This document shows, one piece after another, positions 46,281-64,000 of a stretch of 64,000 nucleotides of DNA. The position numbers were made by a program, and so were the translations under genes. Source of the stretch: Escherichia coli (lineage in GTDB: Bacteria > Pseudomonadota > Gammaproteobacteria > Enterobacterales > Enterobacteriaceae); assembly GCF_024502345.1 (NCBI RefSeq), contig NZ_JALDNN010000001.1, one strand, 5' to 3'. The notes beneath the pieces are model-generated. The model ran no database searches and was not told where the DNA came from. It saw only the letters and a program-made list of their open reading frames with translations. Numbering within the stretch: position 1 is the first letter of the stretch; each line of letters begins with the position of its first letter.

Positions 46281-46629
46281 GGGCTTTGCGCTAAAAACAA
46301 GGTGAGCGGAGGCAGTAATACAGACCAGAAATGACATTCAAAATAATTTCAGACCTATATTACCGGTGTGAGAACGGCAGCAGAAGTGCTGCCGTTTTGT
46401 TATTTCACTCACGGAGGTTAATGTGTCCAGTAAGAACAAACGGGGTCCCGATACCCTGTTACCGTCGTTATTCCTTCTCCCGGGTCAACTGTCCCACAAA
46501 ATACCCGTGCGTATGCTTCTCGCGCTAAGTCACAGCTATGCTTTCTGTTCCGGTACCCAGGTCTCTCTGATACACGGTCCGCCAGCTCATGAAGGCGGCT
46601 ATTTATTGCCAGTAATAAGGGAGAAAGAA

Positions 46630-46926
46630 ATGCATTGTCCGAATTGCGGTTCGCAAAACATACGACTGCGCCATGTGGGTAAAAAGACGGGTGGGGTCAT
46701 TGGCGCAACAGCCGGAGGCATTGCCGGGCTTGAAGGAGCCTCCACCGGTGCGCTGATAGGTTCAGTCATTCCGGTTGTCGGTACGATAGCCGGAGGCCTC
46801 ATTGGTTTTCTGTCCGGCGCCTGTGCTGGTGCGGTGGCAGGCTCTCTGGCCGGAGAACAACTGGACGGTACCGTCTTTGATGAATACGGCTGCACGCAGT
46901 GCGAGCATATCTTCAGTGCACCGTAA
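46630..46926 (+). CDS. small zinc-ribbon / glycine-zipper membrane protein
   Basis: ORF 46423..46926 trimmed to MHCPNCGSQN (GGGAG RBS); CPNC...CTQC Cys pairs flanking a Gly-rich hydrophobic segment. Confidence 0.45.
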   Translation: MHCPNCGSQNIRLRHVGKKTGGVIGATAGGIAGLEGASTGALIGSVIPVVGTIAGGLIGFLSGACAGAVAGSLAGEQLDGTVFDEYGCTQCEHIFSAP

Positions 46927-47112
46927 CGTTAATAAGGGTCAGCCCATCCTGCACAAAGCCTGAGCCGCTGACCGTACTCGCTACGGCACGACTGATGACA
47001 GGGCGTGTCAGCATGCTGTCGTCATTTCAGCTACCTGGCACTAACCCTTTGTTAATTCTCCTGTTTACTGAAAGATGAATTTTACTTTTTCTTTTCCGCC
47101 ATTACGGGGGAT

Positions 47113-47127
47113 GGACATAACGTGTCC
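47113..47127. promoter_or_regulatory. palindrome GGACA-N5-TGTCC (copy 3 of 3), candidate operator
   Basis: GGACAtaacgTGTCC, 60 nt upstream of the ATG at 47188. Confidence 0.45.
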
Positions 47128-47187
47128 CTCCCCGCCCGCATAATAACCGCATGAAATATCAACCTATTTATCGCACACGGAGCGTCC

Positions 47188-47916
47188 ATGCAACGACCCG
47201 ATGAAGAGGCCCGCTACGACCGGCTGGCCGTCAGATTGTCGGTCATTATCAGCCGGTTAATGGCCGGAGAAACGCTGACCCTTCAGACACTGTCCGGTGA
47301 GTTTGGTGTATCGATACGCACCCTGCGTCGTGACTTACATCAACGGCTGGTCCACCTCGACATTATCGGGGAGAACGGCACGTATCGGCTCAGTGAGAGC
47401 GCCACGCGTGATCACTCTCCGGGGGCCGTTTCCTTTGCCCGCAGTACCGGTATCGCACGCATTATCCCGTCGCAGAACCGGCAACTGATGCACCTGCTGA
47501 TGAATGAAACGGGCACCTCACCCTGCTTTATCTGGCACGACTTACCGCCAGCATGGACACAGGCTGACAGTTTTCATCGTCTGGCCGAAGCCATTTGTCA
47601 TCACCGGGTGGTCAGTCTGCTGGTCGGCGGTGTCCGTCACGATGAGCAGGAGCCTTACCGCCTGATTTACCGGCATCAGCACTGGTATCTGGTCGTCTGT
47701 TGCCGGGGGAGCCTTCGGGTGTTCCGGCTGGAAGACATTATCTCGGCCTCACTCTCAGAGCAAACCTTCCGTCGCCGGAGCGAAATCAGTTCGCTCATTA
47801 CTGAAGAGGGATTTATCAGCGCACTGCCCCACTTTCGCTTTATCAGTGATGTCATTCACACCTTCAGGGAACAACACCCTGAACATCCATCCAGACCCAA
47901 AGGAGTCAAATCGTGA
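47188..47916 (+). CDS. HTH transcriptional regulator, YfjR-like (second copy)
   Basis: RLAVRLSVIISRLMAGETLTLQTLSGEFGVSIRTLRRDLH; paralog of ORF 4249..4962; stop overlaps the next start. Confidence 0.6.
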   Translation: MQRPDEEARYDRLAVRLSVIISRLMAGETLTLQTLSGEFGVSIRTLRRDLHQRLVHLDIIGENGTYRLSESATRDHSPGAVSFARSTGIARIIPSQNRQLMHLLMNETGTSPCFIWHDLPPAWTQADSFHRLAEAICHHRVVSLLVGGVRHDEQEPYRLIYRHQHWYLVVCCRGSLRVFRLEDIISASLSEQTFRRRSEISSLITEEGFISALPHFRFISDVIHTFREQHPEHPSRPKGVKS

Positions 47917-48179
47917 AACCTGTCGAAGGCCCTCTGCTGCTCTTCACCCTGATGTTGTCTGCCGTAACCCTGAGCGGCTGTGGCGACAAAAATGAACGCG
48001 AGTTTATCCGGGGATGCAAATCAGGCGGCGGTACTACCGCCGTCTGCGGATGTATCCGGGATGACCTCAAAACGAAATATACGCACGGGGAGCTGGAGAA
48101 AATGAACCAGCAATACGGTTATGTCCCCCCGCGCTTCATGGACAACATGCTGAGCGCTGCTCAGCAGTGCAGAAAATAA
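47913..48179 (+). CDS. small lipoprotein
   Basis: Signal peptide with lipobox LSGC (MKPVEGPLLLFTLMLSAVTLSGCGD...). Confidence 0.55.
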   Translation: MKPVEGPLLLFTLMLSAVTLSGCGDKNEREFIRGCKSGGGTTAVCGCIRDDLKTKYTHGELEKMNQQYGYVPPRFMDNMLSAAQQCRK

Positions 48180-48191
48180 GGAAATCTGAAC

Positions 48192-48503
48192 ATGGCGCTT
48201 GTCATTAAATATTTCGCGATTGCCTTCGCCATCGCGCTTGTGGTCGTGCTGTTTAACGTGTTCGGGAGTACCGGCGAGATACGCAGTTTTGGTCAGGGAA
48301 TGGAATATCTGTTCTGGATGACGCTTGGGCCCGGAGCCGGTATGACGGTCGGTGCTGCTCTTCGACAATGGCTGATGCCGGATGCGGTATACACCCGCGA
48401 AGGAATGACCGGATTACTCAAGGCCCGTCTGTTCTGGCTTGTGGGCCCACAGTATATCGGCTGGCTGGCCGGACTTATCGTCGTGGGTAAACAACTCATG
48501 TAA
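48192..48503 (+). CDS. small membrane protein
   Basis: Three hydrophobic segments; ORF only. Confidence 0.45.
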   Translation: MALVIKYFAIAFAIALVVVLFNVFGSTGEIRSFGQGMEYLFWMTLGPGAGMTVGAALRQWLMPDAVYTREGMTGLLKARLFWLVGPQYIGWLAGLIVVGKQLM

Positions 48504-48549
48504 CACGGCTGCCCCCCAACAACATTTTTGACTGAGAAGGAAAAATACC

Positions 48550-49020
48550 ATGCGATTCATGCACGCCATCCTGTCAGCAGGATTACTGACCTTTGCCATC
48601 ACGGCACAGGCGGTCCCCAATATGTGGAGCAGTGGCTTCGGTATGGGCGTCACCGAGTACATCATCACCAGCCCGGAAAACGTGATGATGAACCTGAACT
48701 GCACCGGCAACCCTGACGACCAGAATATCCTGCAGCATCACGTCATGCTCACCCTGCCTGACGGCAGCGGTGCCGATTCACAGGATGAGAAAACCGCCAT
48801 CACCGTCGTCACGGATGACCAGACGTTCCCCCTGCCGTCCTCTCTGGGCTGGCGTAACGGCGACAACGCCTGGCTGTCGTTCATTGATGCCATCAGAAAA
48901 GCAACGTCGTTTGAGATTTACGTCAACGACAAACAGGTGGGGCACTTTACCCCTTCGGCTGGAAACGTTCACAAGGTTCTGGCTGATATGCCCGAATGCA
49001 CGACACTGACCGCCGGGTAA
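48550..49020 (+). CDS. secreted protein of unknown function
   Basis: Signal peptide MRFMHAILSAGLLTFAITAQA. Confidence 0.5.
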   Translation: MRFMHAILSAGLLTFAITAQAVPNMWSSGFGMGVTEYIITSPENVMMNLNCTGNPDDQNILQHHVMLTLPDGSGADSQDEKTAITVVTDDQTFPLPSSLGWRNGDNAWLSFIDAIRKATSFEIYVNDKQVGHFTPSAGNVHKVLADMPECTTLTAG

Positions 49021-49068
49021 CCCGGCGCATCCCCGGTTTACAGCAAAATCAATCAAGGACAATACGAT

Positions 49069-49581
49069 ATGACCGACATTTCGACACTCAGCCAGCGACT
49101 GACGACGCCAACCCTGCATTTTGTTCTACTCACCGTCGCCACCTGCGGCATCTGGCCGTTACTGTGGCTGTACCGAAAACAGCAGATTATCAGCGACACC
49201 ACCGGATATCCGGTTTGCGGCAATCTGTTTATCATCTGGCTCGCCGTCTGTTTTGGGCTCGGACGACAGTTCGGCGTGATGGCCTCACCGGACCTGGCGG
49301 GCTACTACACGGGCAGCGATACACTGTTGGCCTTAAGCGGCATTCTGTCGCTCACCTGCGGCGTGATGTACATCGTCTGGGCCTTTAAGGCCAGAGCAGC
49401 ACTGCGACACTATGCGCTGAACACCTTCCGGTTTGACCTGAAGATGAATGCGTTTTATACCGTGGTGCTCAACGTCTTCTACATTACATACTGCATCAAC
49501 GATATGCCGCAGGCACTGGCGAAGCACCGCATTATTCATGGTCAGGCCCCTGTGCCGCCGGAGTCTCCGTCACCGCAGTAA
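49069..49581 (+). CDS. membrane protein of unknown function
   Basis: Four predicted TM segments; ORF only. Confidence 0.45.
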   Translation: MTDISTLSQRLTTPTLHFVLLTVATCGIWPLLWLYRKQQIISDTTGYPVCGNLFIIWLAVCFGLGRQFGVMASPDLAGYYTGSDTLLALSGILSLTCGVMYIVWAFKARAALRHYALNTFRFDLKMNAFYTVVLNVFYITYCINDMPQALAKHRIIHGQAPVPPESPSPQ

Positions 49582-49663
49582 CGCAGCTCTCCTCTTATTA
49601 TCCGGCCGGGGCATTCCTGTGTGCCCCAGATTCATCCGGATCCCCCCTCTGAGATTTGACCCA

Positions 49664-49885
49664 ATGACATTACTGAAAATCGTGCTCAACACCCTGCGTC
49701 AGGTGCTGACGTGGTGCGCCAGCAGCCGGGCGCAGCAGTTTGTGGAAGACCACTTCCGCGAAGAAGGCTATGACGAAGACAGTATTTACATCGCCAGACA
49801 GGCGGCAACCCTGCTCGCAGGTGCCTTAATCACAGCGCTCATGGAACAGATACTGCAGCTTATTGCCACACACTTAACCCACTGA
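49664..49885 (+). CDS. hypothetical small protein
   Basis: ORF 49448..49885 trimmed to MTLLKIV...; weak RBS. Confidence 0.25.
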
Positions 49886-49940
49886 TGCCCTGCTCACTGA
49901 GCGGGGCATTTTGTTTTATGCCATTCATCAGGAACTGAAT

Positions 49941-50174
49941 ATGCAAGTCACTGACGATACGTCGTTACCGCCAGGGCAATTCACCCGCCGACAGGCTGAA
50001 GCCGTGGTCACGCTTTACCACAACGTCACTATAGAAGATGACCAGGGTACGCACTTTCGGCTGGTTATTCGCGACAGCGAGGGGACGTTAATCTGGCGGG
50101 CCTGGAATTTTGAAGCCAGTGCCGGGGAATGGCTTAACCGCTATCTGCTCAGCCACGGGATCCCCAAACACTGA
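49941..50174 (+). CDS. hypothetical small protein
   Basis: ORF 49911..50174 trimmed to MQVTDDT.... Confidence 0.3.
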
Positions 50175-50277: not shown

Positions 50278-50673
50278 ATGAGACTAGCCAGCCGCTTTGG
50301 ACGGACAAACCAGATCCGTCGCGATCGTCCGTTAACCCGCGAAGAACTGATGCAGGTCGTTCCCAGCGTATTCAGTGCAGATCGCCACGGTTCCAGGAGC
50401 GAAAAATACGCTTACATACCCACCATTACTCTGCTCGAAAATCTTCAACGCGAAGGCTTTGAACCCTTCTTCGCCTGCCAGTCACGCGTACGCGACCCTG
50501 ACCGCCGGGAGCACACCAAACATCTGCTGCGCCATCTTTGTAGACCGGAGAATGATGTTTGGATGAAAGCGAGTTTTGGTACCCTCATCATTGAGGGTAC
50601 CAACAGCAAAATACTCGGCGAATGCTATTGTCTAAGCACAGCGCCAAGCCTTAGCGGCACGAATAGTTGTTAA
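50278..50673 (+). CDS. DUF932-like (YfjQ-like) protein, probably 3'-truncated
   Basis: MRLASRFGRTNQIRRDRPLTREELMQVVPSVF... resembles N-termini of CP4-prophage DUF932 proteins as I recall them; ORF ends 2 bp before the convergent res gene. Confidence 0.35.
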   Translation: MRLASRFGRTNQIRRDRPLTREELMQVVPSVFSADRHGSRSEKYAYIPTITLLENLQREGFEPFFACQSRVRDPDRREHTKHLLRHLCRPENDVWMKASFGTLIIEGTNSKILGECYCLSTAPSLSGTNSC

Positions 50674-50675
50674 CC

Positions 50676-53414
50676 TTACTCAGCTTTAGCAAACTGCTGG
50701 GTGAAGTAAGCCAATGAATTAGCTTCTTTTACGGCATCATGCGGAATGAGTAAGTATTTCCAAGGTTTGCCACCGTGCTGTGCAAGGTATTCACTGGCAT
50801 GACTACACCATTTCACACCACTGCGGGCTTTTTCGGTGACTTCCTCATTCCAACTGCCGTCTTGGTTTTGATGTTGAGTACTTTTAGTTTCAATCATCAA
50901 TACATAGTCGGCGGTTTCAGCAACGAAATCCGGCACGTATTCAGGATGCTCGCTACCGCGTTTGTAGTACATCTTGAATTGGCCTTTGGCAGGCTTAAAC
51001 CACTTCTCGCAGTCGCGTTCTAAAATCACCGCAAAACGGCGCTCAGTGTCTGAATCAAACTTTTGCAATGGGTATAGACAACGGCTAAAGCCGCCAAAGA
51101 GCATTTGTTTGATGCGACTGACATCGCGTACTGTATCACGGTAGCTTTGCACCGGCTGGTCTTGCGCTATGGTGTAAGCGCAGTCACGTAAGGTACTAAA
51201 GCCACTGCGTACATCGACGACGTACTCGGTTGCTTCTTCAAAGAAGTGGTTGTTCAGTTGCGCATGAATTAACTTCGCAATCGCATCACTCTGGTTTTGC
51301 AGAATGTTCTCAACCACATCGTCGTCGTTTTCAGCGGCCAGTGTATTGACAGCTTGAGTGGCTAGGTCAAACAAAAGTTCAGCTTGCTCGTCGTAAGGAA
51401 TATCGTCGTAATCGAACAGCTTCTTCAAAATATAGTTTTGTTTCACCGGCTCGTAGTTGCCCGAATCGCCTTCGCCACGAATGGTTTGGTGATTGTCTTG
51501 CAGGCTTTGTTGAATCAGAGTTCGGTCGATAGGTTTTAAACCTTTAATGGCAGCAATGTCCAAATCGAACGGGTGATAGCCGGTACGTACTTCACCTGAT
51601 GGTGAAACAATAATACGCGGAATATCTATGGTGTTATCCACCGTGAGCTGGGTGACTTGCTCAACAATCGCCGCAATATCCACCGATTCTTCAGTAAATA
51701 GCTCCCGTTGCTCTTGGGTTAACTGAGCTTTTACTTGTTCGGTGATCTGTGCTTTTACCTCAGTCGTTAACAATGCTTTGCTGGTCGGCGCATCGGTAGG
51801 GCGTGTTTGATATTGCTTGATCACGTCCAATGCAGCGCGGGCAACGGTTTGTTGGTTAGGCGTGGTATAAGTGGCTTTAGGTTCTTGTACCTCACGGTTA
51901 CCGTCTGCACCGGTTGCGGTTACACCTGAACCAGTCAGTTGCTGCTCTAGGTTCGATTTAACCTGCACACTTTGTTTGGTTACATCGTCTTCTGGGCGAT
52001 CTAATACGCGTGTTTTCAGGCGCAGTGGGTTATTCGGGTCGTTAGCCTCATCAACAATTTCTTGGAATTTGTCGTGCGCAACAATGCTCAGCGTATCGAC
52101 GGCTTCAACACCTGTACGTTTGCCATAAGGTAAACGCAAACCACGGCCAATTGACTGTTCAATTAGGGTTCTGGCGTTGGCTGCACGTAGTGGCACAATG
52201 GTGTACAGGTTAGTAACGTCCCAACCTTCTTTCAGCATGTTAACGTGAATGACGATCTCGGTTGGCTCATCGACATGCTCAACATTGAGCAGTGCTTGAA
52301 TAGTTTCTTCTTCTTTTTTACTGCTATCCACTTGAATGACTTTGCCACGGTAGCGGCCGTCAAACACTGTTTCAAGTTTGGTTAAAAGCTCTGCTGCATG
52401 CGTGGTATCACGGGCAATCACCAACATAAAAGGCTTAACTAACTTAGCATCGTTTTCATGTGCATAAGTGATTAAATCCACCTTGGTTTGCTCATGTAAA
52501 CGAATACCGTCCATTAACTTAATGGTTTCTAGTTCGTCTTTATCATATTGGCTGGCATCAAAGTTACGCTGAGTAACAACGGCAGGCTCTTTAACAAAAC
52601 CATCATCCATGGCACAGGCCAATGGGTAATCAATCACCACATTTTTAAAGTGCACAGGGCCACGACTTGATTCGGTAAATGGTGTGGCCGTTAGCTCTAA
52701 TGCGAATAGTGGATTAAGCTCATTGAGCGCACGCATACCGGCATCGGCACGATAGCGATGCGATTCGTCCATCAGCAGCACTAAGTCAGGTAAGTTCGAT
52801 AGATACTCAAAGTAGCTTTCGCCTAGGGTTTCCGCTAAACGCTTAATACGCGGGGCTTTGCCTCCACGTACTTCGGTGTTAATTTTCGCGATGTTAAACA
52901 CATTGATCCGAACCGAACCAAATAGATCGCCCATGACTTGTGCGCCGCGGCTCTCATAGTTATCACCGGTGATCACTTCTGGCGGTGCTAGCACAAAATC
53001 GGTAATGCCTTTAAACACGTACTTCGGTGAGGCGGGCGAGAAATCGCTGATCAGCTTTTCATAAATAGTCAGGTTAGGTGCCAACACAAAATAATTGCGA
53101 ATGCCATGTACCTGATACAAATAGGTAATAAACGCCCCCATCAAACGGGTTTTACCTACACCTGTTGCCAAGGCAAAACACAGTGAAGGAAAGTCACGTT
53201 CAAAATCGCTGAGCTTAGGAAACTGCGCTTTTAAGGTTTCTAATAGCTCCGGCACATCGCGTTTTGGGTTCAGTAGTTTGTGCTCAGAAGCACTAATCGC
53301 CACTGCCAACGCACGCAGCGAATCTTGCTGCGGCTGGCGTAAGCTTAAACGGCCAATAATATTATTAATGGCACGTAATTGGTCGGGTTTTAAGCTTGAT
53401 AAATCCATGGTCAT
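50676..53414 (-). CDS. type III-like restriction enzyme Res subunit (SF2 helicase plus C-terminal PD-(D/E)xK nuclease)
   Basis: 912 aa; Walker A LATGVGKTRLM; DEAH-like motif LVLLMDESHR; C-terminal ...YVPDFVAETADYVLMIETK... reads as a PD-(D/E)xK core. Confidence 0.75.
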   Translation of the reverse strand: MTMDLSSLKPDQLRAINNIIGRLSLRQPQQDSLRALAVAISASEHKLLNPKRDVPELLETLKAQFPKLSDFERDFPSLCFALATGVGKTRLMGAFITYLYQVHGIRNYFVLAPNLTIYEKLISDFSPASPKYVFKGITDFVLAPPEVITGDNYESRGAQVMGDLFGSVRINVFNIAKINTEVRGGKAPRIKRLAETLGESYFEYLSNLPDLVLLMDESHRYRADAGMRALNELNPLFALELTATPFTESSRGPVHFKNVVIDYPLACAMDDGFVKEPAVVTQRNFDASQYDKDELETIKLMDGIRLHEQTKVDLITYAHENDAKLVKPFMLVIARDTTHAAELLTKLETVFDGRYRGKVIQVDSSKKEEETIQALLNVEHVDEPTEIVIHVNMLKEGWDVTNLYTIVPLRAANARTLIEQSIGRGLRLPYGKRTGVEAVDTLSIVAHDKFQEIVDEANDPNNPLRLKTRVLDRPEDDVTKQSVQVKSNLEQQLTGSGVTATGADGNREVQEPKATYTTPNQQTVARAALDVIKQYQTRPTDAPTSKALLTTEVKAQITEQVKAQLTQEQRELFTEESVDIAAIVEQVTQLTVDNTIDIPRIIVSPSGEVRTGYHPFDLDIAAIKGLKPIDRTLIQQSLQDNHQTIRGEGDSGNYEPVKQNYILKKLFDYDDIPYDEQAELLFDLATQAVNTLAAENDDDVVENILQNQSDAIAKLIHAQLNNHFFEEATEYVVDVRSGFSTLRDCAYTIAQDQPVQSYRDTVRDVSRIKQMLFGGFSRCLYPLQKFDSDTERRFAVILERDCEKWFKPAKGQFKMYYKRGSEHPEYVPDFVAETADYVLMIETKSTQHQNQDGSWNEEVTEKARSGVKWCSHASEYLAQHGGKPWKYLLIPHDAVKEANSLAYFTQQFAKAE

Positions 53415-53435: not shown

Positions 53436-55142
53436 TTAATCTTGCGCTGCATCGTCATCGGCAGACGCATCGTCAGTTAGGTTTGCCACGTTTAACGAAT
53501 AATCGTCCTGACCAAATTGGCACTTGTCTAAAATGGCTTTTGGCAGTTTTTTCAAGGTTAAATTGGTAAAACGACCTGGCTCGCAGCGAAATGCACCACA
53601 CATAACCAGTAAAGTTCGGTCACTGCCAACTTCTTCTGACAGCGCTTCTAATTTATCTACCGATAAGCTTTGTGTGGTGACATAAATATGATCCGTCTCG
53701 GTTGAATAACCGTGATCCCACCAATTCACTTCCGATGGCGCATAGGTAAAACCTTCCAGCTTACAAACGGCTTCGGCGAGCATTTCTGGGTTGTACTCTT
53801 TATTGATCACTTCCAAGCCAAACTTATCTTTCACAATTAAGGTCGGGGCAAGTTTGTAATAGCGGAAGCCACCGCCACCTTGCCAGTTTACAGACTTAGA
53901 AATACCACCTTGATCTTCGCCATCAATCACTTTTTGCAAGCGCGGGATAATATGGGTATGACAATGATCACCTAGCTCGACCGAGATCCAACGTCTTTTC
54001 ATCTTGTGAGCTACAGCAGCAGTAGTTCCCGAACCACCGAATGAATCAAAGACTAAATCGCCTTCTCGCGTACACATTTCGAAAATCCGCTTCAAAAGCG
54101 CTTCGGGTTTTTTTCCATTTTTGAAACTAACGCCGCCTTCATTTGCTATTCCATTCCAACTAATGTCAGTCCAAACATCAGTTATTAGTTCAGCAGGTTG
54201 CATCTCACCGTCAATTTCCAAAAGCCTATTGGAGTAAAAGACCATTTGCCTACCATTTGCGATATAAAAGCCTTCGACATCCTCATTTGGATGTACATAA
54301 ACCTTATCCCTATCTTTCTTTGACTTCTCGATAGTTTCTTTTCTCTTTATTTTAGCACCACCACCAATTGCAACGGATTGAAATACACGTTCTGCATTAT
54401 CAATTGCGAATTGTGCTAATTCATCATCAAATGTATCAGGCAGTTTTTTCTTGGCTTCTTTTGTATCTTTATAGCCATTGGCCTTTGCAAACGCATCGGC
54501 AATACCGCACCACGTCCAACTTTTATAATGGTCATCTGGGTTTAATAGATATTTGTTATATCCCGTATCATATCCTTTAGGTATATAGATTTTGTTAAGC
54601 GGTTTCTGGGTGCGATCTTTTGCGTATACAAGCAAAAAGTTTACTGTGGAGAAAACTGTGGCCCCTGTTGCCTTAAAGCCTGAAGGGTCATTTGTGGTCA
54701 TCGATATGGTATTTAACTGATTTGCACGACCAAAAATCTCGTCCATCAAAACTTTTAAATAAGCCATTTCGCAGTCATCTAAGTGAACGAATATTACTCC
54801 ATCATCACTTAGTAGATTACGAATTATTTCTAACCTATCCCTCATTAAGCCCAGCCAAATGGAATGCTCCAGACCATCATCATAGTGCTCAAAAGCACTT
54901 CCGGTATTGAATGGTGGGTCTATGTAAACACACTTCACTTTGCCTGCATATTCTTGCTCTAGCGCCTTCAATGCCAATAAGTTATCGCCAAAAATCAGTT
55001 TATTATCAAAAATATCGTTTTCGGTCACTTTTTGGCTGGCGTGATAAGACTTGCTCGGGTCTTCTAACAAAATGCGCGGCTCTAACTTTTTGCGCTCGTT
55101 TTTGCCTATCCAGGTCAGTTCTAATTTGGTTTTGCTCATCAT
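53436..55142 (-). CDS. type III-like Mod DNA methyltransferase (beta-class N6-adenine/N4-cytosine)
   Basis: 568 aa; motif IV DPPFNTG near the N-terminus and motif I FDSFGGSGTT about 290 aa later (order IV-TRD-I). Confidence 0.8.
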   Translation of the reverse strand: MMSKTKLELTWIGKNERKKLEPRILLEDPSKSYHASQKVTENDIFDNKLIFGDNLLALKALEQEYAGKVKCVYIDPPFNTGSAFEHYDDGLEHSIWLGLMRDRLEIIRNLLSDDGVIFVHLDDCEMAYLKVLMDEIFGRANQLNTISMTTNDPSGFKATGATVFSTVNFLLVYAKDRTQKPLNKIYIPKGYDTGYNKYLLNPDDHYKSWTWCGIADAFAKANGYKDTKEAKKKLPDTFDDELAQFAIDNAERVFQSVAIGGGAKIKRKETIEKSKKDRDKVYVHPNEDVEGFYIANGRQMVFYSNRLLEIDGEMQPAELITDVWTDISWNGIANEGGVSFKNGKKPEALLKRIFEMCTREGDLVFDSFGGSGTTAAVAHKMKRRWISVELGDHCHTHIIPRLQKVIDGEDQGGISKSVNWQGGGGFRYYKLAPTLIVKDKFGLEVINKEYNPEMLAEAVCKLEGFTYAPSEVNWWDHGYSTETDHIYVTTQSLSVDKLEALSEEVGSDRTLLVMCGAFRCEPGRFTNLTLKKLPKAILDKCQFGQDDYSLNVANLTDDASADDDAAQD

Positions 55143-55196: not shown

Positions 55197-57062
55197 CTAC
55201 GCAGGTTGTGCTTGGCGATTACTCGCTTGGGTGTTTTGCCCTTGTCGGCGTTGCGCTTGCTCGGCTAAGTAACTGAATAAATTCTGGTTGTGTGGGTCGT
55301 TCGCTTGAAGGCGTTCTTGTTTTGCTACAACTGCCGGGCTTTCTGCCAAGTTTAAATGGCTAATCCACACCGTTTGCATTAAACGTGCGGTATCGCCCAA
55401 GCGTTTGAAGTATGCGTGCGGCGCACTGCCTAATACTAATGCCGTAAAACTATCAAAAAATTGCTGACGAAGTTCATCAAAAGCGTGGCTGATTAATCTT
55501 TTAAATGCCGCTTGCTCGGTAATCTCAGGAGCCGTAATAGCGCCTTCAAACTGCGCCATTAATAGCGTGGTTATGCAGTAAGTAAAATGTCGATATACCA
55601 GTTTTTCTGGGCTTGGACTACTGCGCTCTGCGTTTGTACATAAGACTTGAATAGCCAGATAGCAGTTCACCGCGTTAATGGCGACGGCCCCCTGTAAATC
55701 TGTACTAAAAACGGCTTGGTACTCGGCACTTTCTTGGTTAGTGAATTTGCTTGGCTCTACTTTTAGCTGATAAGGCACGCGTACATCACCGTGCATACAG
55801 GCCAATGCTTTGGCCAAGGTGTCGATAGTAATGCTGCGAATACCCGCTGCTGCGCTTTGTTGTGGGCGGTAGAGATATTCAACACCAAACATTTTCATCT
55901 CTTGGCGCAAGCGTTCTTGGGTATCATCCAGCGCGGCAAAGTTGGCTAAATCGACCGGGTTTTGCAGGTTACGCGCTTTGGTTACTTGTTTGTGAAATGC
56001 ATCGTTACCCGTGTTGATAATGGTTACCATCACTTGAGCTTGGCTGATGTCTGCATTTGGGTTTTCACGCATAAACTGTGCAGCACTAGCAATGGTTTGT
56101 GCACCGTTAACGACGGACAGGCCATCGACTGCAACATGCTTGCTACCTGTGTGGCCTCTAATATTCCCTTTTGGTTTTACTGCATTGCCAACCAGAGTAA
56201 TGCCATTGTTAAGATAAATAAAATTTTCCGGCTCATGTAAAAGGGTGTCTTTAATCGCCCTATTTACCCCACGTCTGCCAGCACCAATAAAATAGCGAAT
56301 ATTTTTCTCGTAAAGTTTACGGTCATGAGTAGTGTGCAAGGCAATTAAATCGGTTAGCTTGGCGATACCAAATACGACTTTTCGTGGTTGTTCTTGCACT
56401 CGGAACTTATATACAGCGACACGCTCGTTTACCGTATCAACCGCATGTTCACTGCGAAGAGCCTGCTCAACATCGGTGGCGGTGTATTCTTGATATTCAG
56501 GTGCGATTTGCTCTTCACCTTCATCAATCAGCTCTTGGATCGCTGGTTGTAGGTAGTTTTGTGCTTGTATGGTAATGCCATTACCTGTGTATGCGACAAG
56601 CAGTTGAATTCTTTCGCACTCGTCTAATGCGGCTTCAATATTTGCTTGAAGGTTTTGAACATTTTGATTAAAGCGGTGAAATTGCTTGTTTAAAAGTAAC
56701 TTTACACCCTCAATAAAAGCCTGTGCTTCGCCCAATTGGAATTGCGCATCTTCCTTCATTTTTGACTGTACTAAGTACAGAGTCTGATCAGCTTCGTGAT
56801 AATAAATTGCATCAATACCATGGTCTTCATAGTCGTCCACCACAGCTTTTGCTGCGGTCACTACGTCTAAATCGAATTTTTGCTGTAGTACGAATGCGCT
56901 AAAAGCCCTGGAAATTTGCTTTTTAGGTTTATCTTCTCGCCCACCTTGCCCAAGCAATGGCGGTAAATGCGGCACAAAACGCTGCTGTAGCAGTTCTTTT
57001 AATAGGGTAAGAAATTGTGGTTGTAATGCTGCCAAGTGAGTTGTCCTTATTTTTATTGCCAA
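55197..57062 (-). CDS. AIPR-like putative abortive-infection protein (tentative) with N-terminal PD-(D/E)xK-like motif
   Basis: 621 aa; N-terminal ...[22 protein letters not shown]... resembles a nuclease core; family assignment from memory only; start overlaps the upstream Abi_2 gene by about 10 nt. Confidence 0.35.
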
Positions 57063-57994
57063 ATTGGCCGCGCTTGCCAGTCGGCTGGAAAGCCCATGCG
57101 GTCAATGTCTATTTGGTGATGATTTATCAATTGGATGAGTCGTTGCTTCCAGTGATGTTCACCACTGATCACATCCATGAGGTAGCCCAACATCACCAAG
57201 GTGTTATAAATTTTTCGTAAACGCCGGTCGCTATCGGGCAGGTTTTGCAAGCTTTGAATCAGTGCCGGTTCACCATGGCGTGGCAGTACCGTGGTTTTAA
57301 TAAAATCACGGTTCCATAGCCTAGAATGATGGGCACTTAAATTGCGCACTAGCGACAAATGCTCACAGAATGAGGTAAGAGTTTTTTCATCTAGGCCGTA
57401 GCTTTTGCTTATTACCTGGCGGTCGGCACGCAGCTTGATATTGCTGTACCAACAGGAAAGTTGCCCCATGGTTAACAGCTCAACACAGGCCCAAATAGGG
57501 GGTAGTGGCTCTTGATATTTTTGCGTAAGGTGCTTGATGAACTCTTCACGACTGCACTTTACCTCACCCGTGAGTTTGCCAAGGCTACTGGCGTATTCTA
57601 ATAAATCACCAAAGAGCTCTGGTTTTAAATGAGGGTGCGCGGTTTGGTATTTTTGGCTCAACTGATACGCAATTTGTGTGCGTAATGACACCTCAAAACG
57701 CTCGATGGCATCTAGCACTAACAAACGTAGTTCACGGTCGAAAACATATAGGCTTAGGACTTGGTCAAACTGAGTACCTGTGATAAACGTATGACTGGCA
57801 TGATCTTGCTCATAGGGCAAACAATAAGCCGCAAAACGATAGTAGTTCAGCTGTGCTAAGTAAAACTCAGCTTTCGGGACATCACTGATCACTAGGCCAC
57901 GTTGTTGCAACAAGCGTACTTGATCGCTAAAGCTTGTAGGGGGCTTGGTAAAAGCGACTTTAGGGACTGGTTTGCGGCTCATTTGACCTCCCAT
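57053..57994 (-). CDS. Abi_2 family (AbiD/AbiF-like) abortive infection protein
   Basis: 313 aa; ...FGDLLEY... and ...[19 protein letters not shown]... match the hallmark Abi-like motifs as I recall them. Confidence 0.65.
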
Positions 57995-58139
57995 GCAACA
58001 GAAGATCGAATTTTGCGGGCCCCAGAAACGAGTAACCCCTCACAGGGCGCTGATCTGACGGGTAGCGGGAGGGGTGTTGTTGCAGTGATCATAGCCCCAA
58101 ACTGAAAAAAGTCAATGCTGGCGTTGAAATTGATTGTCA

Positions 58140-61034
58140 TCATTGAACCGTCCACCCAATGGTAAATAGGGTCTCTTGGCTGGTTTTTTTATTCAGTTTG
58201 CCTTCTAAGCTTTCAATCAGCTGTTCGCGCTTTTCGTCCACTTCATCTTGTTTATCAAACAGTTCACGGCGGCTTTTATTGCGCTGACTTTCTAACTGGC
58301 GCTGCTGTTTTTGCAGGGCAAGTTTCTCTTCCAGGGTTGGAGCTATTTTGGCTTCGCGGCGTACTTGCTTGATTTGCTTATCAAGCTCTTTTATAGATTG
58401 TTCAAGCCCTTCTTTTAAATCGTCTGCCCAAGAATCTAACTTGTTTACCTCTTGCTCGAAGAAGCTGAGATTACGATCGTTAACTTGCTTTTCGATGCCT
58501 AGTCTCGACTGCTGTAACGCATGCTGCAGCGCATATTGATAGCCAGGATATAAGGCGGCAAGTTCTTGCTCACTTACTTCACTTTGCACACAGGCACTAA
58601 GCTGCATCAGCTTTTGCACGACTTCACTTGGTAGCGGATGACCATGTTCATCTTGCGCGGCGAACAATAAATGGTCTTCGCTACGCTCCAATGATTCGAC
58701 ACTAAATTTTTGTAGGCTTAGTACACCTGACAAACCCACTAAGGGTTCTAGCATACTGATTTTTGTTTGGTGGTTGCTGTAATCAAAAATTACGCTGGCA
58801 ATGGGTAATTCACGTTGAAGCGCGTTGCTGATCACCCATTCACCCAGCGGGTGGGTGATACGATACACATGGGCATTGGCTAGTTTACCGGTTTCAATAC
58901 TGCCGCTTTGCTGTCCTCGGCGTACAAGTTGGTAGCTACCTGTAGGAGCCTGATTGATACTTTGATTAAGCGTAAAACTATGGTTGCTTGGGTCAATGTC
59001 TGCGATAGCTGCAAGTTCATGCGTACTGAGTTGCCAGAACCAACGGCCTACTTTATCGAGGCGTTGCTGCGCGGCATCTAGCTGAATTTTGAGTAAGTCG
59101 TGAATATCTTCATCGAAATTTTCCAGCAGCAGTTGCTGGGTCTCGCGCATTTTTTGGTTGATGTCGGCTTCTAGCTCTTTTTGCAATTGATCAAAAGCTG
59201 CTTCTATTTCCGCCGGTTGCCGACAAGTCTCGTATATATTTTGGATGCGTTTTTCAAAATCAATACCAGATTCAATGCTGCCTAGCACATCGTCCGATGC
59301 ACCAAACACGCCATCGAACAGATGGAATTTTTCAGTCAGTAACTCTAAAACACGCTGATCGGCTTTGTTGGCTTCGTTGAGGAAGTTGATCACCACAACA
59401 TCAAATTGCTGCCCATAGCGGTGACAACGGCCAATACGTTGCTCTACTCGTTGTGGGTTCCATGGTAAGTCATAGTTAATAAGTAACGAACAGAACTGTA
59501 AGTTAACCCCTTCTGCAGCCGCTTCGGTTGCGATCATAACTTCGGCATGATGGCGGAAGTAATCAATTAGGGCAGTACGGCGGTCAATTTGCGGTGAACC
59601 ACTCACCTTATCACTACCTTGGTTTTCAGCTAACCACTGCTGATAAACTTTGGTTGCTTCTGGATGGTTATTGCTGCCACTAAAGGTGACTAATTTATCA
59701 GCAAAGCCATTCGCCTCGAGGAAACGAGCTAGGTATTCTTGCGTGCGCTTCGATTCGGTAAAAATAATGACTTTACGTGGCGCCCCCATTTCCTCCATTT
59801 TGGCAAACCCTTGATTAAGCGCCGTTAGCAAGGCTTGGGTTTTACTGTCGGTGGTAATGGATTTAGCCTGCTCGATATAATGCTCAAGCTCGGCTATTTC
59901 AGCATTGAGTAACTCAAAGTCAATATCACTCTCAGGGGTATTGCTTTGTGTTTCTTCTACATACTCGCTGTACTCTTCTCCTAAATCATCACTCTCAACA
60001 AGCTCACTGATAATATCGAGGTCCGATTTAGCCTGTACTTTCAAGTCAACCAATCGGCGCTTTATAGTTTCGAGTGTGTTGAGCACTGCGTGCGAACTAG
60101 ATGCTAATAGCTTTCTCAGTATAAGGCCGGTTAAATGACGTTGGCTCTTGGGTAGTGCATAGCTCTCGTCCTTTTCCAATAAGGCACTAATACTTTCGTA
60201 AAGTGCCATCTCAGCATTAGAGGGTGTAAACGGTACGGTGAGTGTTTGACGTTGGGTATAGCGGACGTATTCGAGTACATCTTTGCGCAAGGTACGCTGA
60301 ATAAACCCGGTAAGTCGTTTCTTTAAATGCCCTAGCGCACTTTCGTTATTGACAAAGTGTTGTTTGAAGCTTCGCTCATCGCCGAAGATTTGATCGTCGA
60401 TAATGGTTGAAAGTCCATACAATTCCATGAGCGAGTTTTGTAAGGGTGTTGCAGTAAGTAATAGCTTTTTACTGCCATCTAATGCGCGGCGTAGCGTTTG
60501 ACCCATTTTATTGCTGCTACGATGTGCATTACGTAGCTTGTGCGCTTCGTCGATGACGACAATATCCCATGGCTCTAGCATTAGCTGCGTTTCCATTCTC
60601 GCAGCATAGTGATAGGACATAATAGAAACGCAGTGATTAGCTAGCGGGTTAGTTTGACCATTGTTAACACTAATGCGCCACGTTTTTGCATCAAGCACTT
60701 GCGTTGGTAAATTAAACTTATCGCCCAATTCCTGCGCCCACTGGCGTCGCAATGACGCCGGGCAGATGATCAATATGCGGCGTTTACGCTCTGCCCAATA
60801 CTGTGACAGTACTAAGCCTGCTTCAATAGTTTTCCCTAAGCCCACTTCATCAGCGAGTACAACACCTTTGCTTAACGGGTTGTTGAGCGCAAAAAGTGCC
60901 GCATGAATTTGGTGCGGATTGAGATCAACACTGGCATCAAAAAGAGATTGAGACAATTTATCAACGCCATTTTCAGCGTGGCGAATGGTTAATTCCTGCG
61001 CAAAGTATTTTGCTTGATAATCAGTTATTACCAT
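58140..61034 (-). CDS. SNF2-family (SWI2/SNF2) DEAD/DEAH-box helicase with long coiled-coil C-terminal extension
   Basis: ORF 58140..61115 trimmed to the ATG at 61034 that overlaps the stop of the upstream HTH gene (ATGGTAATAACTGA); motifs LADEVGLGKTIEAG, IVVIDEAHKLRN, helicase C motif ...QRIGRCHRYGQ.... Confidence 0.85.
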   Translation of the reverse strand: MVITDYQAKYFAQELTIRHAENGVDKLSQSLFDASVDLNPHQIHAALFALNNPLSKGVVLADEVGLGKTIEAGLVLSQYWAERKRRILIICPASLRRQWAQELGDKFNLPTQVLDAKTWRISVNNGQTNPLANHCVSIMSYHYAARMETQLMLEPWDIVVIDEAHKLRNAHRSSNKMGQTLRRALDGSKKLLLTATPLQNSLMELYGLSTIIDDQIFGDERSFKQHFVNNESALGHLKKRLTGFIQRTLRKDVLEYVRYTQRQTLTVPFTPSNAEMALYESISALLEKDESYALPKSQRHLTGLILRKLLASSSHAVLNTLETIKRRLVDLKVQAKSDLDIISELVESDDLGEEYSEYVEETQSNTPESDIDFELLNAEIAELEHYIEQAKSITTDSKTQALLTALNQGFAKMEEMGAPRKVIIFTESKRTQEYLARFLEANGFADKLVTFSGSNNHPEATKVYQQWLAENQGSDKVSGSPQIDRRTALIDYFRHHAEVMIATEAAAEGVNLQFCSLLINYDLPWNPQRVEQRIGRCHRYGQQFDVVVINFLNEANKADQRVLELLTEKFHLFDGVFGASDDVLGSIESGIDFEKRIQNIYETCRQPAEIEAAFDQLQKELEADINQKMRETQQLLLENFDEDIHDLLKIQLDAAQQRLDKVGRWFWQLSTHELAAIADIDPSNHSFTLNQSINQAPTGSYQLVRRGQQSGSIETGKLANAHVYRITHPLGEWVISNALQRELPIASVIFDYSNHQTKISMLEPLVGLSGVLSLQKFSVESLERSEDHLLFAAQDEHGHPLPSEVVQKLMQLSACVQSEVSEQELAALYPGYQYALQHALQQSRLGIEKQVNDRNLSFFEQEVNKLDSWADDLKEGLEQSIKELDKQIKQVRREAKIAPTLEEKLALQKQQRQLESQRNKSRRELFDKQDEVDEKREQLIESLEGKLNKKTSQETLFTIGWTVQ

Positions 61035-61227
61035 CCAACACCCCTTTTCCTTGAGCTGCTTGCGTACTGATCCATTCTTCAAGATCGGATTGTTTAAAGC
61101 GCCAAGCATTGCCAACTTTAAAAGCAGGAATTTTATGTACCGCTGCTAGACGGTAAACAGTTCTCTCATTTACCTTCAAATACTCAGCTACTTCTTTAAT
61201 TGTCAGAACGGTATCAGTCATTTTCAC
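61021..61227 (-). CDS. small excisionase/MerR-like HTH DNA-binding protein, first gene of the operon
   Basis: 68 aa; ...LTIKEVAEYLKVNERTVYRLAAVHKIPAFKVGNAWRFKQSDLEEWI.... Confidence 0.6.
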   Translation of the reverse strand: MKMTDTVLTIKEVAEYLKVNERTVYRLAAVHKIPAFKVGNAWRFKQSDLEEWISTQAAQGKGVLDGNN

Positions 61228-61433
61228 TCGGCCACTTTGAAAAGTGCGTCAATTATCTAATGCGAGTGTCAAAATAGTACAAATAAGTACATGAATCAAT
61301 CTTATTCGGCACTTGCCGGAGCTCCTTGGCTTTAATCCTCATCAATTTTAGGTACAGTTTTCAGGCTCGGGGATAAAGTATAAAGAATGTCGTACTGCCG
61401 CTGCCAGAGCAATATTCCCCCCTGCTGGTTGTA

Positions 61434-62093
61434 TCAGAGATGGTATGCCGGTATTTTGCGGGTTGTTCCCGTCAGGTTATCGTGCACCTCCACGGTCGTC
61501 GTTACCACCGGCATTCCGGCCTTTCTCAGCCTCAGGACATCAGCCGCAATACGCTGACTGCCAAACCAGAACAGGCCGTCCAGTGCAGTCACCAGTAAAC
61601 CTGCCTCCAGCGCATACTTCAGCCGTTCACGGGGCGCTTTCACTTCCCTGGCAACCTGCTGATATGGCGATGATGTGCTTTCATTCCCAACCACGCGACG
61701 AATACGGTGAGACAGATGATACCGGTATATATCCGGCACACCAGAAAGACTGGCCTTCAGGCTGTACACGCAGCCAAACCGTTTATCGTTGAACACCACA
61801 TTTTTCTGGCTGATGCCCCATTCTTCACGCAGCGCGGCAATCAGTTGTGGTGTCCGGGTAAGCAGCAAGCGAAAAGGCAGCTCAAAACTGGTGACGTAAT
61901 CCACATTCAACAATGCAATACGCAGTCGTTCTTCTGGCCCGGCCTCTGTCTGCCGACACTCCTCCAGAACATCCTGCCACTGCCGGCGAAGACGGGGCGA
62001 TTCGTTCCGTTCTGTAAAACAGTATTTATCTGCCAGATAATCAATTCGTGTACGCATACTGAAAAGAATTCCGTATAAAGATTCAGCAGACAA
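61434..62093 (-). CDS. hypothetical protein (219 aa)
   Basis: ORF only. Confidence 0.4.
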   Translation of the reverse strand: MSAESLYGILFSMRTRIDYLADKYCFTERNESPRLRRQWQDVLEECRQTEAGPEERLRIALLNVDYVTSFELPFRLLLTRTPQLIAALREEWGISQKNVVFNDKRFGCVYSLKASLSGVPDIYRYHLSHRIRRVVGNESTSSPYQQVAREVKAPRERLKYALEAGLLVTALDGLFWFGSQRIAADVLRLRKAGMPVVTTTVEVHDNLTGTTRKIPAYHL

Positions 62094-62145
62094 AACTTTA
62101 TCAGTCTGTAAAAATTAACGGAAGAGTCGATATTTCTCCCGGTCA

Positions 62146-62688
62146 TCACCGGATGATTGTTGCAATAACCAGTGGCCTCAGAGACTGAACAGCCGTTTTT
62201 AACGCAACGTATTGCTCTGATGTATCAGGCCGGGTAACCCGAAAACACCTTTCCACCCGACATTGTCCGCCCGTATCCATCCCCCGCCAGGTCTGCTGCA
62301 GTAAATCCACCACTTGCGAACATTGTTCATCAACTGTGACACTGGCTCGCGGGTGACAAATACTCGTCTGGCTGAGCAGCAACAGGCATCGCATTGTTGC
62401 TCCTCCATGTTGTTCCCGCAACCAGCGTAATACCACCGGCGATGATGGACTGGTCGTGTGATTACGCTCAGTAATACGTTCATAAAAGGAAGTACAGAAT
62501 GCATGAATATGTTGCCCGTTGATGTTTCCTTCTGCCGAATGGAGCGTGAAGTGAAATGCCAACAGATGTGGCCAGTGGTCCACCCCCTGCTGAACAAAAC
62601 GCCGGATTTCCCCCGGCGCTGAAAGTAAGGCTTCGGTTATTTGCACTATTTTACCCCTGTGAATTTTGTTAAGCCGGTGCAGACACAC
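62146..62688 (-). CDS. YagK/YfjJ-like hypothetical protein (type A, second copy)
   Basis: Paralog of ORF 40449..41015. Confidence 0.45.
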   Translation of the reverse strand: MCLHRLNKIHRGKIVQITEALLSAPGEIRRFVQQGVDHWPHLLAFHFTLHSAEGNINGQHIHAFCTSFYERITERNHTTSPSSPVVLRWLREQHGGATMRCLLLLSQTSICHPRASVTVDEQCSQVVDLLQQTWRGMDTGGQCRVERCFRVTRPDTSEQYVALKTAVQSLRPLVIATIIR

Positions 62689-62913
62689 GGAAAGCGCACA
62701 TCAACACCAGCACAGTACGATACAAACACCAGTGACTGACGGGACGAAGGAAATGACGAATCAGTCAGGAAATGATGACAAACAGTTGGCTGACCAGAGG
62801 GTGTCAGCAGAAAGATGAGCGGGAGTGTCGCCAGCACCAGGGACAGGGCTGATTTCCGCAATACCAGCGCCGGCATTTTGCACATTGACAGCGTACTGGC
62901 ATTACAACACGTT

Positions 62914-63144
62914 TCATGCTGCTCCTCGTGATTCCTCAATTCGCTGCTGCATCCACTGCTCCACTTCACTTTTGTACCAGCGGCTGCTGCGCCCCAGTTT
63001 GATGGGTTTAGGGAAATGACCTTCACTGATCAGCCTGTAAAACCATTTATCGGTCATGCCGGTGAAACTGGTGATGTAGTTCATGTCGATCAGGGGATCA
63101 TCGGCACGCAGCAATACGCTGTCGTGGCTTGTTGTGGTCAACAT
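62914..63144 (-). CDS. AlpA-like phage regulatory protein (second copy)
   Basis: ORF 62914..63264 trimmed to MLTTTSHDSVLLRADDPLIDMNYITSFTGMTDKWFYRLISEGHFPKPIKLGRSSRWYKSEVEQWMQQR. Confidence 0.6.
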   Translation of the reverse strand: MLTTTSHDSVLLRADDPLIDMNYITSFTGMTDKWFYRLISEGHFPKPIKLGRSSRWYKSEVEQWMQQRIEESRGAA

Positions 63145-63212
63145 GGTCAGAATGTCCTCAGTGAGATTTATGAAGAATGGGGTAATACGGGAAATGGGAT
63201 TGCGTGCTGCTT

Positions 63213-63803
63213 TCAGCACTGCCAACCGGGATTGCCGGCAAGGCAACGGGCTTCCGGATCGCACACTCCACGGCGATCGCGGGCGAAATCACTGAACGCC
63301 CAGATAAGGTCCTTAAACAGGGCTTCGCAGTCCGGTGACCGGCGATCCAGTACCACATCCCGGGTGATCTGCTTCTGGTACAGCTTTGCTTCACCTGGTG
63401 ACGCGAAACCCAGCACATTACTCCAGGCATCCAGTATCAACCGATCCAGTTCGGGGCCGTCGAAATACTCCTGTCTGACGCACAGCACCACGTGGTATTC
63501 CGGCTTTTCCGGATGACGGGTCAGGAGCCAGCAGAGGTCACGCCCGGGCGTTGCATTCATCAGCGCACTGACAGTTTCGATAAAGGCCATACCAAACCAG
63601 GTCTTTCTGCTGCTGAAGGTAGTGTCATATTCACATGGCAGACGAAGCAGGATCCGCCGTACCCGGGAGCCGGACTGCTCACGCAGCGCACGCTCAAGAA
63701 CGCCGATGACTTTGCTCTGATAAGATGGCCAGAAGGGGGCAAGGCTATAGTCGAAATAAGGAATAGCATTCATAAGATATGCTCCGTTATGCGCAGCCCA
63801 CAA
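63213..63803 (-). CDS. YagK/YfjJ-like hypothetical protein (type B, second copy)
   Basis: ...EYHVVLCVRQEYFDG...; related to ORF 42596..43201. Confidence 0.45.
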   Translation of the reverse strand: MWAAHNGAYLMNAIPYFDYSLAPFWPSYQSKVIGVLERALREQSGSRVRRILLRLPCEYDTTFSSRKTWFGMAFIETVSALMNATPGRDLCWLLTRHPEKPEYHVVLCVRQEYFDGPELDRLILDAWSNVLGFASPGEAKLYQKQITRDVVLDRRSPDCEALFKDLIWAFSDFARDRRGVCDPEARCLAGNPGWQC

Positions 63804-64000
63804 CGCGTCCTGCCCGAGAATGAGCTGACGTGTTATGGTTTGCGGATGGGGTTGATGGAATACGTGAAGAACCGAAACAGAACGGGAAGATCAGGTCACC
63901 GACAAGGGGCGAACACCGGATACAGGTTCAGGATGAATGATCTCCGTTGACTTCGGTTCACATCATTAATCAAGGCGGTAAGGTTTTACCGACGGAGTGT

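Follow-up and report, generated by a model that had tools for sequence, protein, structure and literature searches.

An AIPR-family protein with a predicted PD-(D/E)xK nuclease fold is a conserved component of a SNF2 and type III restriction-modification cassette in Escherichia coli

The closest described relative of the gene studied here is AbiU/AbiUi of Lactococcus lactis. AbiU lowers plating efficiency 10- to 100-fold and delays phage transcription, and the AlphaFold model of AbiUi superimposes on FokI, according to a 2026 review (PMC13064643). Between 2008 and 2013, AIPR/AbiU1 proteins were tied to restriction-modification (R-M) and type III systems and were called members of the ParB superfamily (PMC3506569, PMC3632139, PMC2292703), and the Upx paper assigned AbiU-1 to the PD-(D/E)xK superfamily (PMC13099982). 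In the sources searched, we found no solved structure and no demonstrated mechanism for the AIPR family, and the phenotype data there date from 2001. In this study, we analyzed an AIPR gene of Escherichia coli, located on the minus strand near positions 55197-57062 of a stretch of 64,000 nucleotides (nt), hereafter the window, from contig NZ_JALDNN010000001.1 (RefSeq assembly GCF_024502345.1).

The E. coli protein is homologous to lactococcal AbiU/AbiUi over nearly its full length, contains the Pfam AIPR domain, and has the same predicted FokI-like N-terminal fold. Lactococcal AbiU is carried on a plasmid and works as a single gene, and its activity is lowered by the neighboring AbiUii. In contrast, the AIPR gene described here is embedded between a gene for an SNF2-family helicase (with an Abi_2 cargo gene) and the methyltransferase (Mod) and restriction (Res) genes of a type III R-M system, in an order that is conserved across phyla. 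We propose, giving the proposal about an even chance, that AIPR is a gated DNA endonuclease co-inherited with an N6-methyladenine (m6A) type III R-M module, to which it would add a second restriction or abortive layer.

A profile search found a single strong Pfam family in the protein, AIPR (PF10592, i-E=3.7e-38), covering model positions 1-304 of 308 and residues 242-530. The PADLOC AbiU profile matched at E=1.4e-37 (residues 47-535, profile positions 21-507 of 537), and PHROG 1841, labelled as the "Abi alpha-like" abortive-infection family, matched at E=6e-69 over almost the whole length. Judging from these profile matches, we are confident that the protein is a member of the AIPR (AbiU1-like) phage-defence family. 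The first-pass annotation, which was made from the DNA letters, had put forward the name AIPR as unverified, and the name proved to be correct. The same annotation had called the family uncertain and had stated that roughly 550 residues beyond a short nuclease-like stretch match nothing. Neither statement holds, as the Pfam domain covers residues 242-530, the AbiU and PHROG 1841 profiles span nearly the full protein, and RefSeq names near-identical copies "AIPR family protein". In 19 complete E. coli genomes, this label is attached to copies with 99.7-99.9% DNA identity to the gene, and the gene itself is present in 24 of 5,426 complete E. coli genomes. Homologues are numerous: one database yielded 865 at E<=1e-3 from 8,000 scored candidates, and a second yielded 4,239 cluster representatives (50% identity clustering) at the same threshold. 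These numbers, together with a very confident fold prediction, place the open reading frame (ORF) far beyond chance. Since RefSeq already lists the gene under its family name, it is ordinary as a genome-scan finding, and the remaining interest lies in the mechanism of AIPR and in the architecture of the cassette.

We predicted the structure of the protein with AlphaFold2 from an alignment of 121 sequences (23-93% identity to the query), and obtained a model with a predicted local distance difference test score (pLDDT) of 95.1 and a predicted template modelling score (pTM) of 0.92. Sequence comparison with all PDB chains gave no meaningful match (best E=0.11 for the protein and E=0.39 for the core-domain profile). 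Residue numbers below refer to the 612-residue form of the protein unless stated. The model contains an N-terminal domain (residues 64-226; window 56358..56846, minus strand) with a restriction-endonuclease-like alpha/beta fold, which we assign to the Mrr/FokI type of PD-(D/E)xK nucleases. The nuclease idea of the first-pass annotation was thus borne out by structure prediction and a fold search, in which the N-terminal half matched PD-(D/E)xK nucleases. The stretch that had prompted it, residues 80-101 of the 621-residue ORF, corresponds to residues 71-92 of the 612-residue form (56760..56825, minus strand), a motif comprising D71, G73, D75, Q90 and K92 that is defined by conservation and predicted strands. 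Across the 121 sequences, D67, D71 and D75 never vary, and conservation reaches 99% at G73, Q90 and K92. D75 stands just before the strand 76-80 and Q90-S-K92 lies inside the strand 85-92, so that a catalytic-type D...(D/E/Q)xK arrangement, D75...Q90-x-K92, is found on two adjacent beta strands.

A HEPN domain has been claimed at the N-terminus of AIPR (PMC3506569). We found no conserved R...H pair in the helical residues 1-63 and no HEPN match in Pfam, and the fold matches are to PD-(D/E)xK nucleases; a HEPN assignment was therefore set aside. Within residues 1-63, only L16, R43, A47 and A61 reach 80% conservation.

The glutamine at position 90 bears on whether the domain is catalytic. The N-terminal region of DndB has been grouped with AbiU1/AIPR (PMC3506569, PMC3632139), and AIPR could be a DndB-like regulator that binds DNA and controls methylation or restriction, its nuclease domain being degenerate and non-catalytic; the glutamine in place of the usual acidic residue of the (D/E)xK motif and the position of the gene abutting mod are consistent with such a role. 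Against this, D67, D71, D75, Q90 and K92 are 99-100% conserved over very large evolutionary distances, as expected of an active site, and D...QxK, with glutamine replacing the acidic residue, is an active configuration of Mrr-type nucleases. Pfam and structural-match searches also detected no helix-turn-helix (HTH) or other DNA-binding regulator domain in AIPR. We consider a purely regulatory role very improbable.

The central part of the protein is the AIPR core (residues 227-418; 55782..56357, minus strand), with the motifs NIR, NNGIT, VNGAQT and ARNxQN and a probable divergent ParB/sulfiredoxin fold. The residues N245, R247, N277, G278, N310, G311, Q313, N356 and Q358 are invariant in the 121 sequences and also in an alignment of 46 core sequences. 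Almost all core invariants are Asn, Gln, Arg or Thr (N245, R247, N258, N276, N277, G278, N310-T314, T352, N356, Q358, N359). A Foldseek search of the core against the PDB gave nothing significant, with Spo0J/ParB ranked at the top, and the only consistent structural matches were weak ones to ParB/sulfiredoxin-fold domains (BrxU, SspE, ParB), a fold that also occurs in the DUF262 domains of GmrSD, BrxU and SspE. "ParB-like" is thus, tentatively, the best available description of the predicted fold of the core, and it does not denote family membership. The core is followed by an all-helical C-terminal domain (residues 419-612; 55200..55781, minus strand), delimited by predicted secondary structure and identity. 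This domain of about 190 residues is the least conserved part of the protein, with a mean identity to the query of 22% versus 41% for the core.

GmrSD, BrxU and SspE are the systems that AIPR resembles in logic, although it fails their sequence and motif tests. The order of domains is reversed, with the nuclease of AIPR at the N-terminus, and the nuclease is of the PD-(D/E)xK type instead of DUF1524. The invariant strand-to-helix motif of AIPR is NGAQT, without an arginine, in place of the nucleotide-binding DGQQR (or GxxR) motif of these proteins. There is also no similarity at the profile level, as hhalign of the AIPR core against the DUF262 profile (BrxU homologues) gave a probability of 0.3% and E=0.2, and no DUF262-type model of PADLOC or Pfam matched AIPR. 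Membership of the DUF262/GmrSD family was ruled out on the hhalign result and on NGAQT standing where DGQQR would be expected. On plasmid pEFER, the DUF262 protein BrxU is encoded immediately upstream of pglX (locus L095, 18711-24143), in the same position relative to the methyltransferase gene as AIPR to mod. MzaE shares the AIPR core over about 100-130 residues (PADLOC E=6.5e-11, NCBIfam E=6.6e-13). An identification of the protein as MzaE was rejected, with an NCBIfam score of 48 bits against a cutoff of 1050 and with SNF2, Abi_2, Mod and Res as neighbors.

The family, the predicted folds, the conserved residues, the conserved gene order, the allele mosaicism and the dispensability of AIPR are observations; we infer that AIPR would have nuclease activity, that DNA would be its substrate, that the core would gate this activity, and that the protein may cooperate with Mod, Res or SNF2. 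The N-terminal Mrr/FokI-type domain would cut DNA by means of D75...Q90-x-K92 together with D67 and D71. Control over this cutting would rest with the ParB-like core and the C-terminal domain, and these two parts may respond to a nucleotide, to a DNA or modification state, or to a phage factor. Encoded in one operon with the m6A type III module, AIPR would supply a second, independently evolving restriction or abortive activity. Candidate catalytic residues are D75, Q90 and K92, and the candidates in the core are N310, Q313, R247 and N356.

We then compared the gene neighborhoods of AIPR in 80 loci, taken from contigs at one genome per species, in which AIPR is 34-99% identical to the protein studied here. 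The loci span Proteobacteria, Verrucomicrobia, Planctomycetes, Bacteroidetes, Acidobacteria and others. Where the sequence extends far enough, nearly all of them have homologous Mod (45-98% identical) and Res (49-99%) genes downstream of AIPR on the same strand, with a gap between AIPR and Mod of usually 0-60 nt. Upstream, 56 loci had at least 3.2 kb of sequence, and a homologous SNF2 gene (phmmer E<=1e-266) was found in 48 of them; in 26 it adjoins AIPR, and in the other 22 one or two inserted genes lie between the two. Small HTH homologues occupy the same relative position in many loci, and independent neighborhood look-ups agreed with the SNF2-AIPR-Mod-Res picture. The cassette thus has the order HTH, SNF2, cargo slot, AIPR, type III Mod, cargo slot, type III Res. 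In the open-access texts searched, we found no paper that describes the SNF2-AIPR-Mod-Res cassette with its cargo slots as a system.

The Abi_2 gene, which the first-pass annotation had described as translationally coupled to AIPR, occupies the slot between SNF2 and AIPR in only 5 of the 56 loci; the conserved neighbors are SNF2, Mod and Res. This slot corresponds to 57053-58139 in the window, and was also examined in loci L015, L018, L020, L024, L033, L037, L043, L047, L050, L057, L069 and L093. Elsewhere it holds IetA/IetS (L037), PDC-S05 (L024), HEC-01A/B (L047), or ABC/SMC-type ATPases (other loci). Since the inserts vary by locus while SNF2, AIPR, Mod and Res persist, the comparison of loci indicates that Abi_2 is exchangeable cargo and that AIPR is a conserved core gene along with SNF2, Mod and Res. 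The junction between Mod and Res also takes inserts, namely a Zeta-toxin-like gene (L007, 11472-12172) and a YhcG/DUF1016 nuclease gene (L009, 4009-5091).

The persistence of the order also bears on whether AIPR is an autonomous, single-gene abortive-infection toxin that stands in an R-M operon merely through the clustering of defence genes. Other stand-alone defence genes do insert in the same operon, AbiUi alone gives resistance in Lactococcus (PMC13064643), and AIPR genes occur in solitary form (L013 and L014). However, the order SNF2-AIPR-Mod-Res, with abutting or overlapping start and stop codons, is kept across the five phyla named above down to 34% AIPR identity, and the cargo in the neighboring slot varies by locus, unlike AIPR. 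We regard an autonomous toxin as unlikely, while noting that two further observations given below, the deletion of AIPR from cassettes that are otherwise intact and the independent reassortment of AIPR and Mod alleles, speak in its favor.

The opposite possibility is that SNF2, AIPR, Mod and Res make up a distinct system of four components that cannot restrict without AIPR, which would be, for example, its main nuclease or its sensor of self and non-self. In line with this, the four genes have stayed in very tight synteny since ancient times, and BrxU holds a place equivalent to that of AIPR, upstream of the BREX methyltransferase gene of pEFER. A further parallel comes from Liu-DS4, in which the related DrmD-like SNF2 helicase AsaH is essential for the activity of the neighboring IetAS (bioRxiv 10.64898/2025.12.08.692795). 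The same kind of arrangement (a DrmD-like SNF2 helicase, then IetA and IetS) also fills the slot upstream of AIPR in L037. The Walker A and DEAH positions are K68 and D162 in the SNF2 protein of the window and K65 and D165 in AsaH, and are thus close; the likeness to Liu-DS4 is one of positions and gene arrangement. The portion of the preprint text searched contains no mention of AIPR or of type III R-M. Because AsaH is needed for IetAS, and the same arrangement occurs in the L037 slot, the analogy hints that the SNF2 helicase may serve downstream effectors. On the other side, Res keeps a canonical nuclease motif of its own, PD...ExK (PDFVAETADYVLMIETK, residues 828-844), Mod and Res score as complete type III subunits, and cassettes that have lost AIPR retain intact Mod, Res, SNF2 and Abi_2 ORFs. 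An obligate role for AIPR therefore appears doubtful to us.

A broader version of this idea is that the cassette is an ancient defence system in its own right, composed of HTH, SNF2, AIPR, Mod and Res, and not a type III R-M system with an Abi gene added. AIPR would then be a dedicated effector or sensor nuclease acting in concert with the methylation mark and the SNF2 translocase. The SNF2|AIPR and Mod|Res junctions would be docking slots, and the docked effectors (Abi_2, IetAS, PDC-S05, HEC-01, Zeta toxin, YhcG) would share the helicase or the sensor. We hold this joint reading as a tentative possibility, well short of an even chance.

We also compared the divergence of the cassette proteins, and found that AIPR is the most divergent of the conserved ones. 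In typical distant loci, SNF2 is 47-49%, Mod about 48-52% and Res 51-53% identical, whereas AIPR is 35-38% identical. The AIPR allele has been replaced in cassettes that are otherwise 96-99% identical (L018 and L020, AIPR 74-76%), and within the replaced alleles the nuclease domain is 52% identical, versus 81% for the core and 87% for the C-terminus. Mod and AIPR alleles swap independently of each other, as AIPR is 99% and Mod 63% identical in L015, and AIPR is 76% and Mod 98% identical in L018. This fast turnover of AIPR, by allele and by domain, fits a direct conflict with phage.

AIPR is also dispensable for the persistence of the cassette. In 5 complete E. coli genomes, a segment of about 1.2 kb (55838..57032) is deleted from AIPR at a 10-bp direct repeat, GTAATGCTGC, whose copies lie at 55828-55837 and 57023-57032 of the window. 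The deletion leaves a 206-residue C-terminal ORF (L003, 7001-7621), and the SNF2, Abi_2, Mod and Res ORFs are intact. Likewise, several Salmonella plasmids carry SNF2, Abi, Mod and Res with only a 210-bp hypothetical ORF at the place of AIPR (L001, 10630-13000). In these plasmids, SNF2 and Abi are separated by IS256, and the Mod sequence nearby shows only 85-91% identity to the window.

The rapid evolution of AIPR relative to its neighbors, together with its abortive-infection family name, could also be read as the mark of a guard. The anticodon RNase PrrC is under guard by a type Ic enzyme, and the likeness to an EcoprrI-like arrangement lies in a second effector gene nested in an R-M operon. 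AIPR would differ from PrrC in its predicted DNA-nuclease-type fold and its type III association, and its cassette admits further cargo (Abi_2, IetAS, PDC-S05, HEC-01, Zeta toxin and YhcG nuclease). As a guard, AIPR would be held inactive by the type III R-M proteins, freed when a phage anti-restriction protein disables them, and would kill the cell by cutting its DNA; for AbiU1/AIPR proteins beside R-M systems, a link between immunity and suicide has been suggested (PMC3506569). The independent reassortment of AIPR and Mod is awkward for such a co-adapted pair, and AIPRs that are solitary or associated with type II enzymes exist. Distant AIPRs (23-29% identity) were found directly upstream of N6_N4 methyltransferase genes, in one case next to a BamHI-like type II enzyme, or alone; their adjacency to methyltransferase genes counts in favor of our main reading. 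We consider the guard explanation quite unlikely.

Several of these observations weigh against our own proposal of a gated endonuclease working alongside the type III module. Lactococcal AbiUi works alone (PMC13064643), and some AIPR genes are solitary. That AIPR and Mod alleles reassort independently speaks against recognition, by AIPR, of the specific site methylated by its cognate Mod. AIPR-less cassettes persist in the 5 E. coli genomes and the Salmonella plasmids, and Res carries its own nuclease motif, so the R-M part does not need AIPR. Finally, glutamine instead of an acidic residue at the middle active-site position could mean that catalysis is altered or lost.

We also examined the strand and the start codon of the gene. 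The ORF list contains a minus-strand ORF of 621 codons with a TTG start and a TAG stop at 55197-57062, and translation of the plus strand of this interval is full of stops. The first-pass annotation was right that such an ORF is present, with the qualification that it lies on the minus strand and that its likely product has 612 residues. The homologues are 609-612 residues long, and their alignments begin at residue 1 of the version initiated at TTG 57035; RefSeq uses the equivalent start for a copy in E. coli with 99.8% DNA identity; and a ribosome-binding-like AAGGA, read from the sequence, stands at 57044..57048 on the minus strand with a spacing of 8 nt to this codon. These three points make TTG 57035 the likely true start, and the most likely coding sequence is 55197..57035 on the minus strand (612 residues and stop), in agreement with the Pfam AIPR match. 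The remaining 27 nt of the longer ORF (57036..57062, minus strand, from TTG 57062) overlap the stop codon of Abi_2 and were found in no homologue in two database searches; this extension is probably not translated.

With the start at TTG 57035, the overlap of AIPR with Abi_2, whose stop lies at 57053-57055, is gone and a 17-nt spacer takes its place. The translational coupling of the two genes claimed earlier rests on a start codon that the homologues do not back. AIPR and Abi_2 are tightly linked within one operon, and the 10-nt overlap is probably not the translated arrangement. In contrast, the statement that the gene lies directly upstream of mod in a defence operon is supported, as mod starts at 55142, 54 nt past the AIPR stop, and PADLOC assigns the operon genes to defence families.

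The other genes of the operon are all on the minus strand. A small excisionase-type HTH gene (61021..61227; excisionase domain E=3.4e-17) overlaps the start of the SNF2 gene (58140..61034), which encodes a DrmD-like helicase of 964 residues (PADLOC DrmD E=1.7e-208). The Abi_2/AbiD-like gene (57053..57982; Pfam Abi_2 E=4.5e-51, PADLOC AbiD E=3.4e-71) stands in the slot between SNF2 and AIPR. Downstream of AIPR lie the type III methyltransferase gene mod (53436..55142; PADLOC MTase_III E=7.4e-285) and the restriction subunit gene res (50676..53414; PADLOC REase_III E=8.9e-191), and the family profiles identify both the Mod and the helicase-nuclease Res of a type III R-M system.

Two named multi-gene defence systems were considered for the operon and rejected. 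DISARM class 1 combines DrmA, DrmB and DrmC with DrmD and DrmMI. The SNF2 protein would have to be DrmD, which it resembles, but it scores 697 bits with NCBIfam DISARM_DrmD_b, below the cutoff of 950; the other four proteins are AbiD, AbiU, a type III methyltransferase and a type III restriction enzyme, not DrmA, DrmB or DrmC. MADS has the mandatory components MAD6-8 in an 8-gene operon of about 22 kb (bioRxiv 10.1101/2023.03.30.534895). In the six-gene operon of the window, only the small HTH protein scores as MAD1 (NCBIfam MADS1, 81.9 bits, cutoff 80), and the other genes are assigned elsewhere. RefSeq calls the small HTH gene mads1 in related genomes. Because the match is borderline, the excisionase match is generic and there is no other MADS component, this label is probably over-specific.

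The G+C content is 0.40-0.48 in the operon and about 0.54 in the flanks, including 46500-50000. From 50525 to the end of the window, the DNA is 99.0% identical to E. coli chromosomes. The identity to the chromosome of an avian pathogenic E. coli (APEC) begins abruptly at 50525, just past the stop of res, with IS66 genes beyond this point in that genome, and to the right of the cassette (61116-64000) the identity goes down to 96%. An SXT/R391-type element was set aside as an explanation for the window; both the cassette and the flank to its right show a 99% match to chromosomes of E. coli. The best sigma-70-like match of the operon, TTGACT-16-TATGAT (10 of 12 positions, minus strand, 58088-58115), sits in the 145-nt gap between SNF2 and Abi_2. 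Promoter-like sites were not enriched over the region, with 12 found and 18 expected.

Taken together, the conserved partners of AIPR are the SNF2 helicase and the type III Mod and Res proteins, not Abi_2, and the slots of the cassette gather other defence genes. Should AIPR turn out to be a gated nuclease that works alongside a methylation module, GmrSD, BrxU and SspE would gain a PD-(D/E)xK counterpart, and this would help to explain why Abi-type genes are frequently nested in R-M operons.

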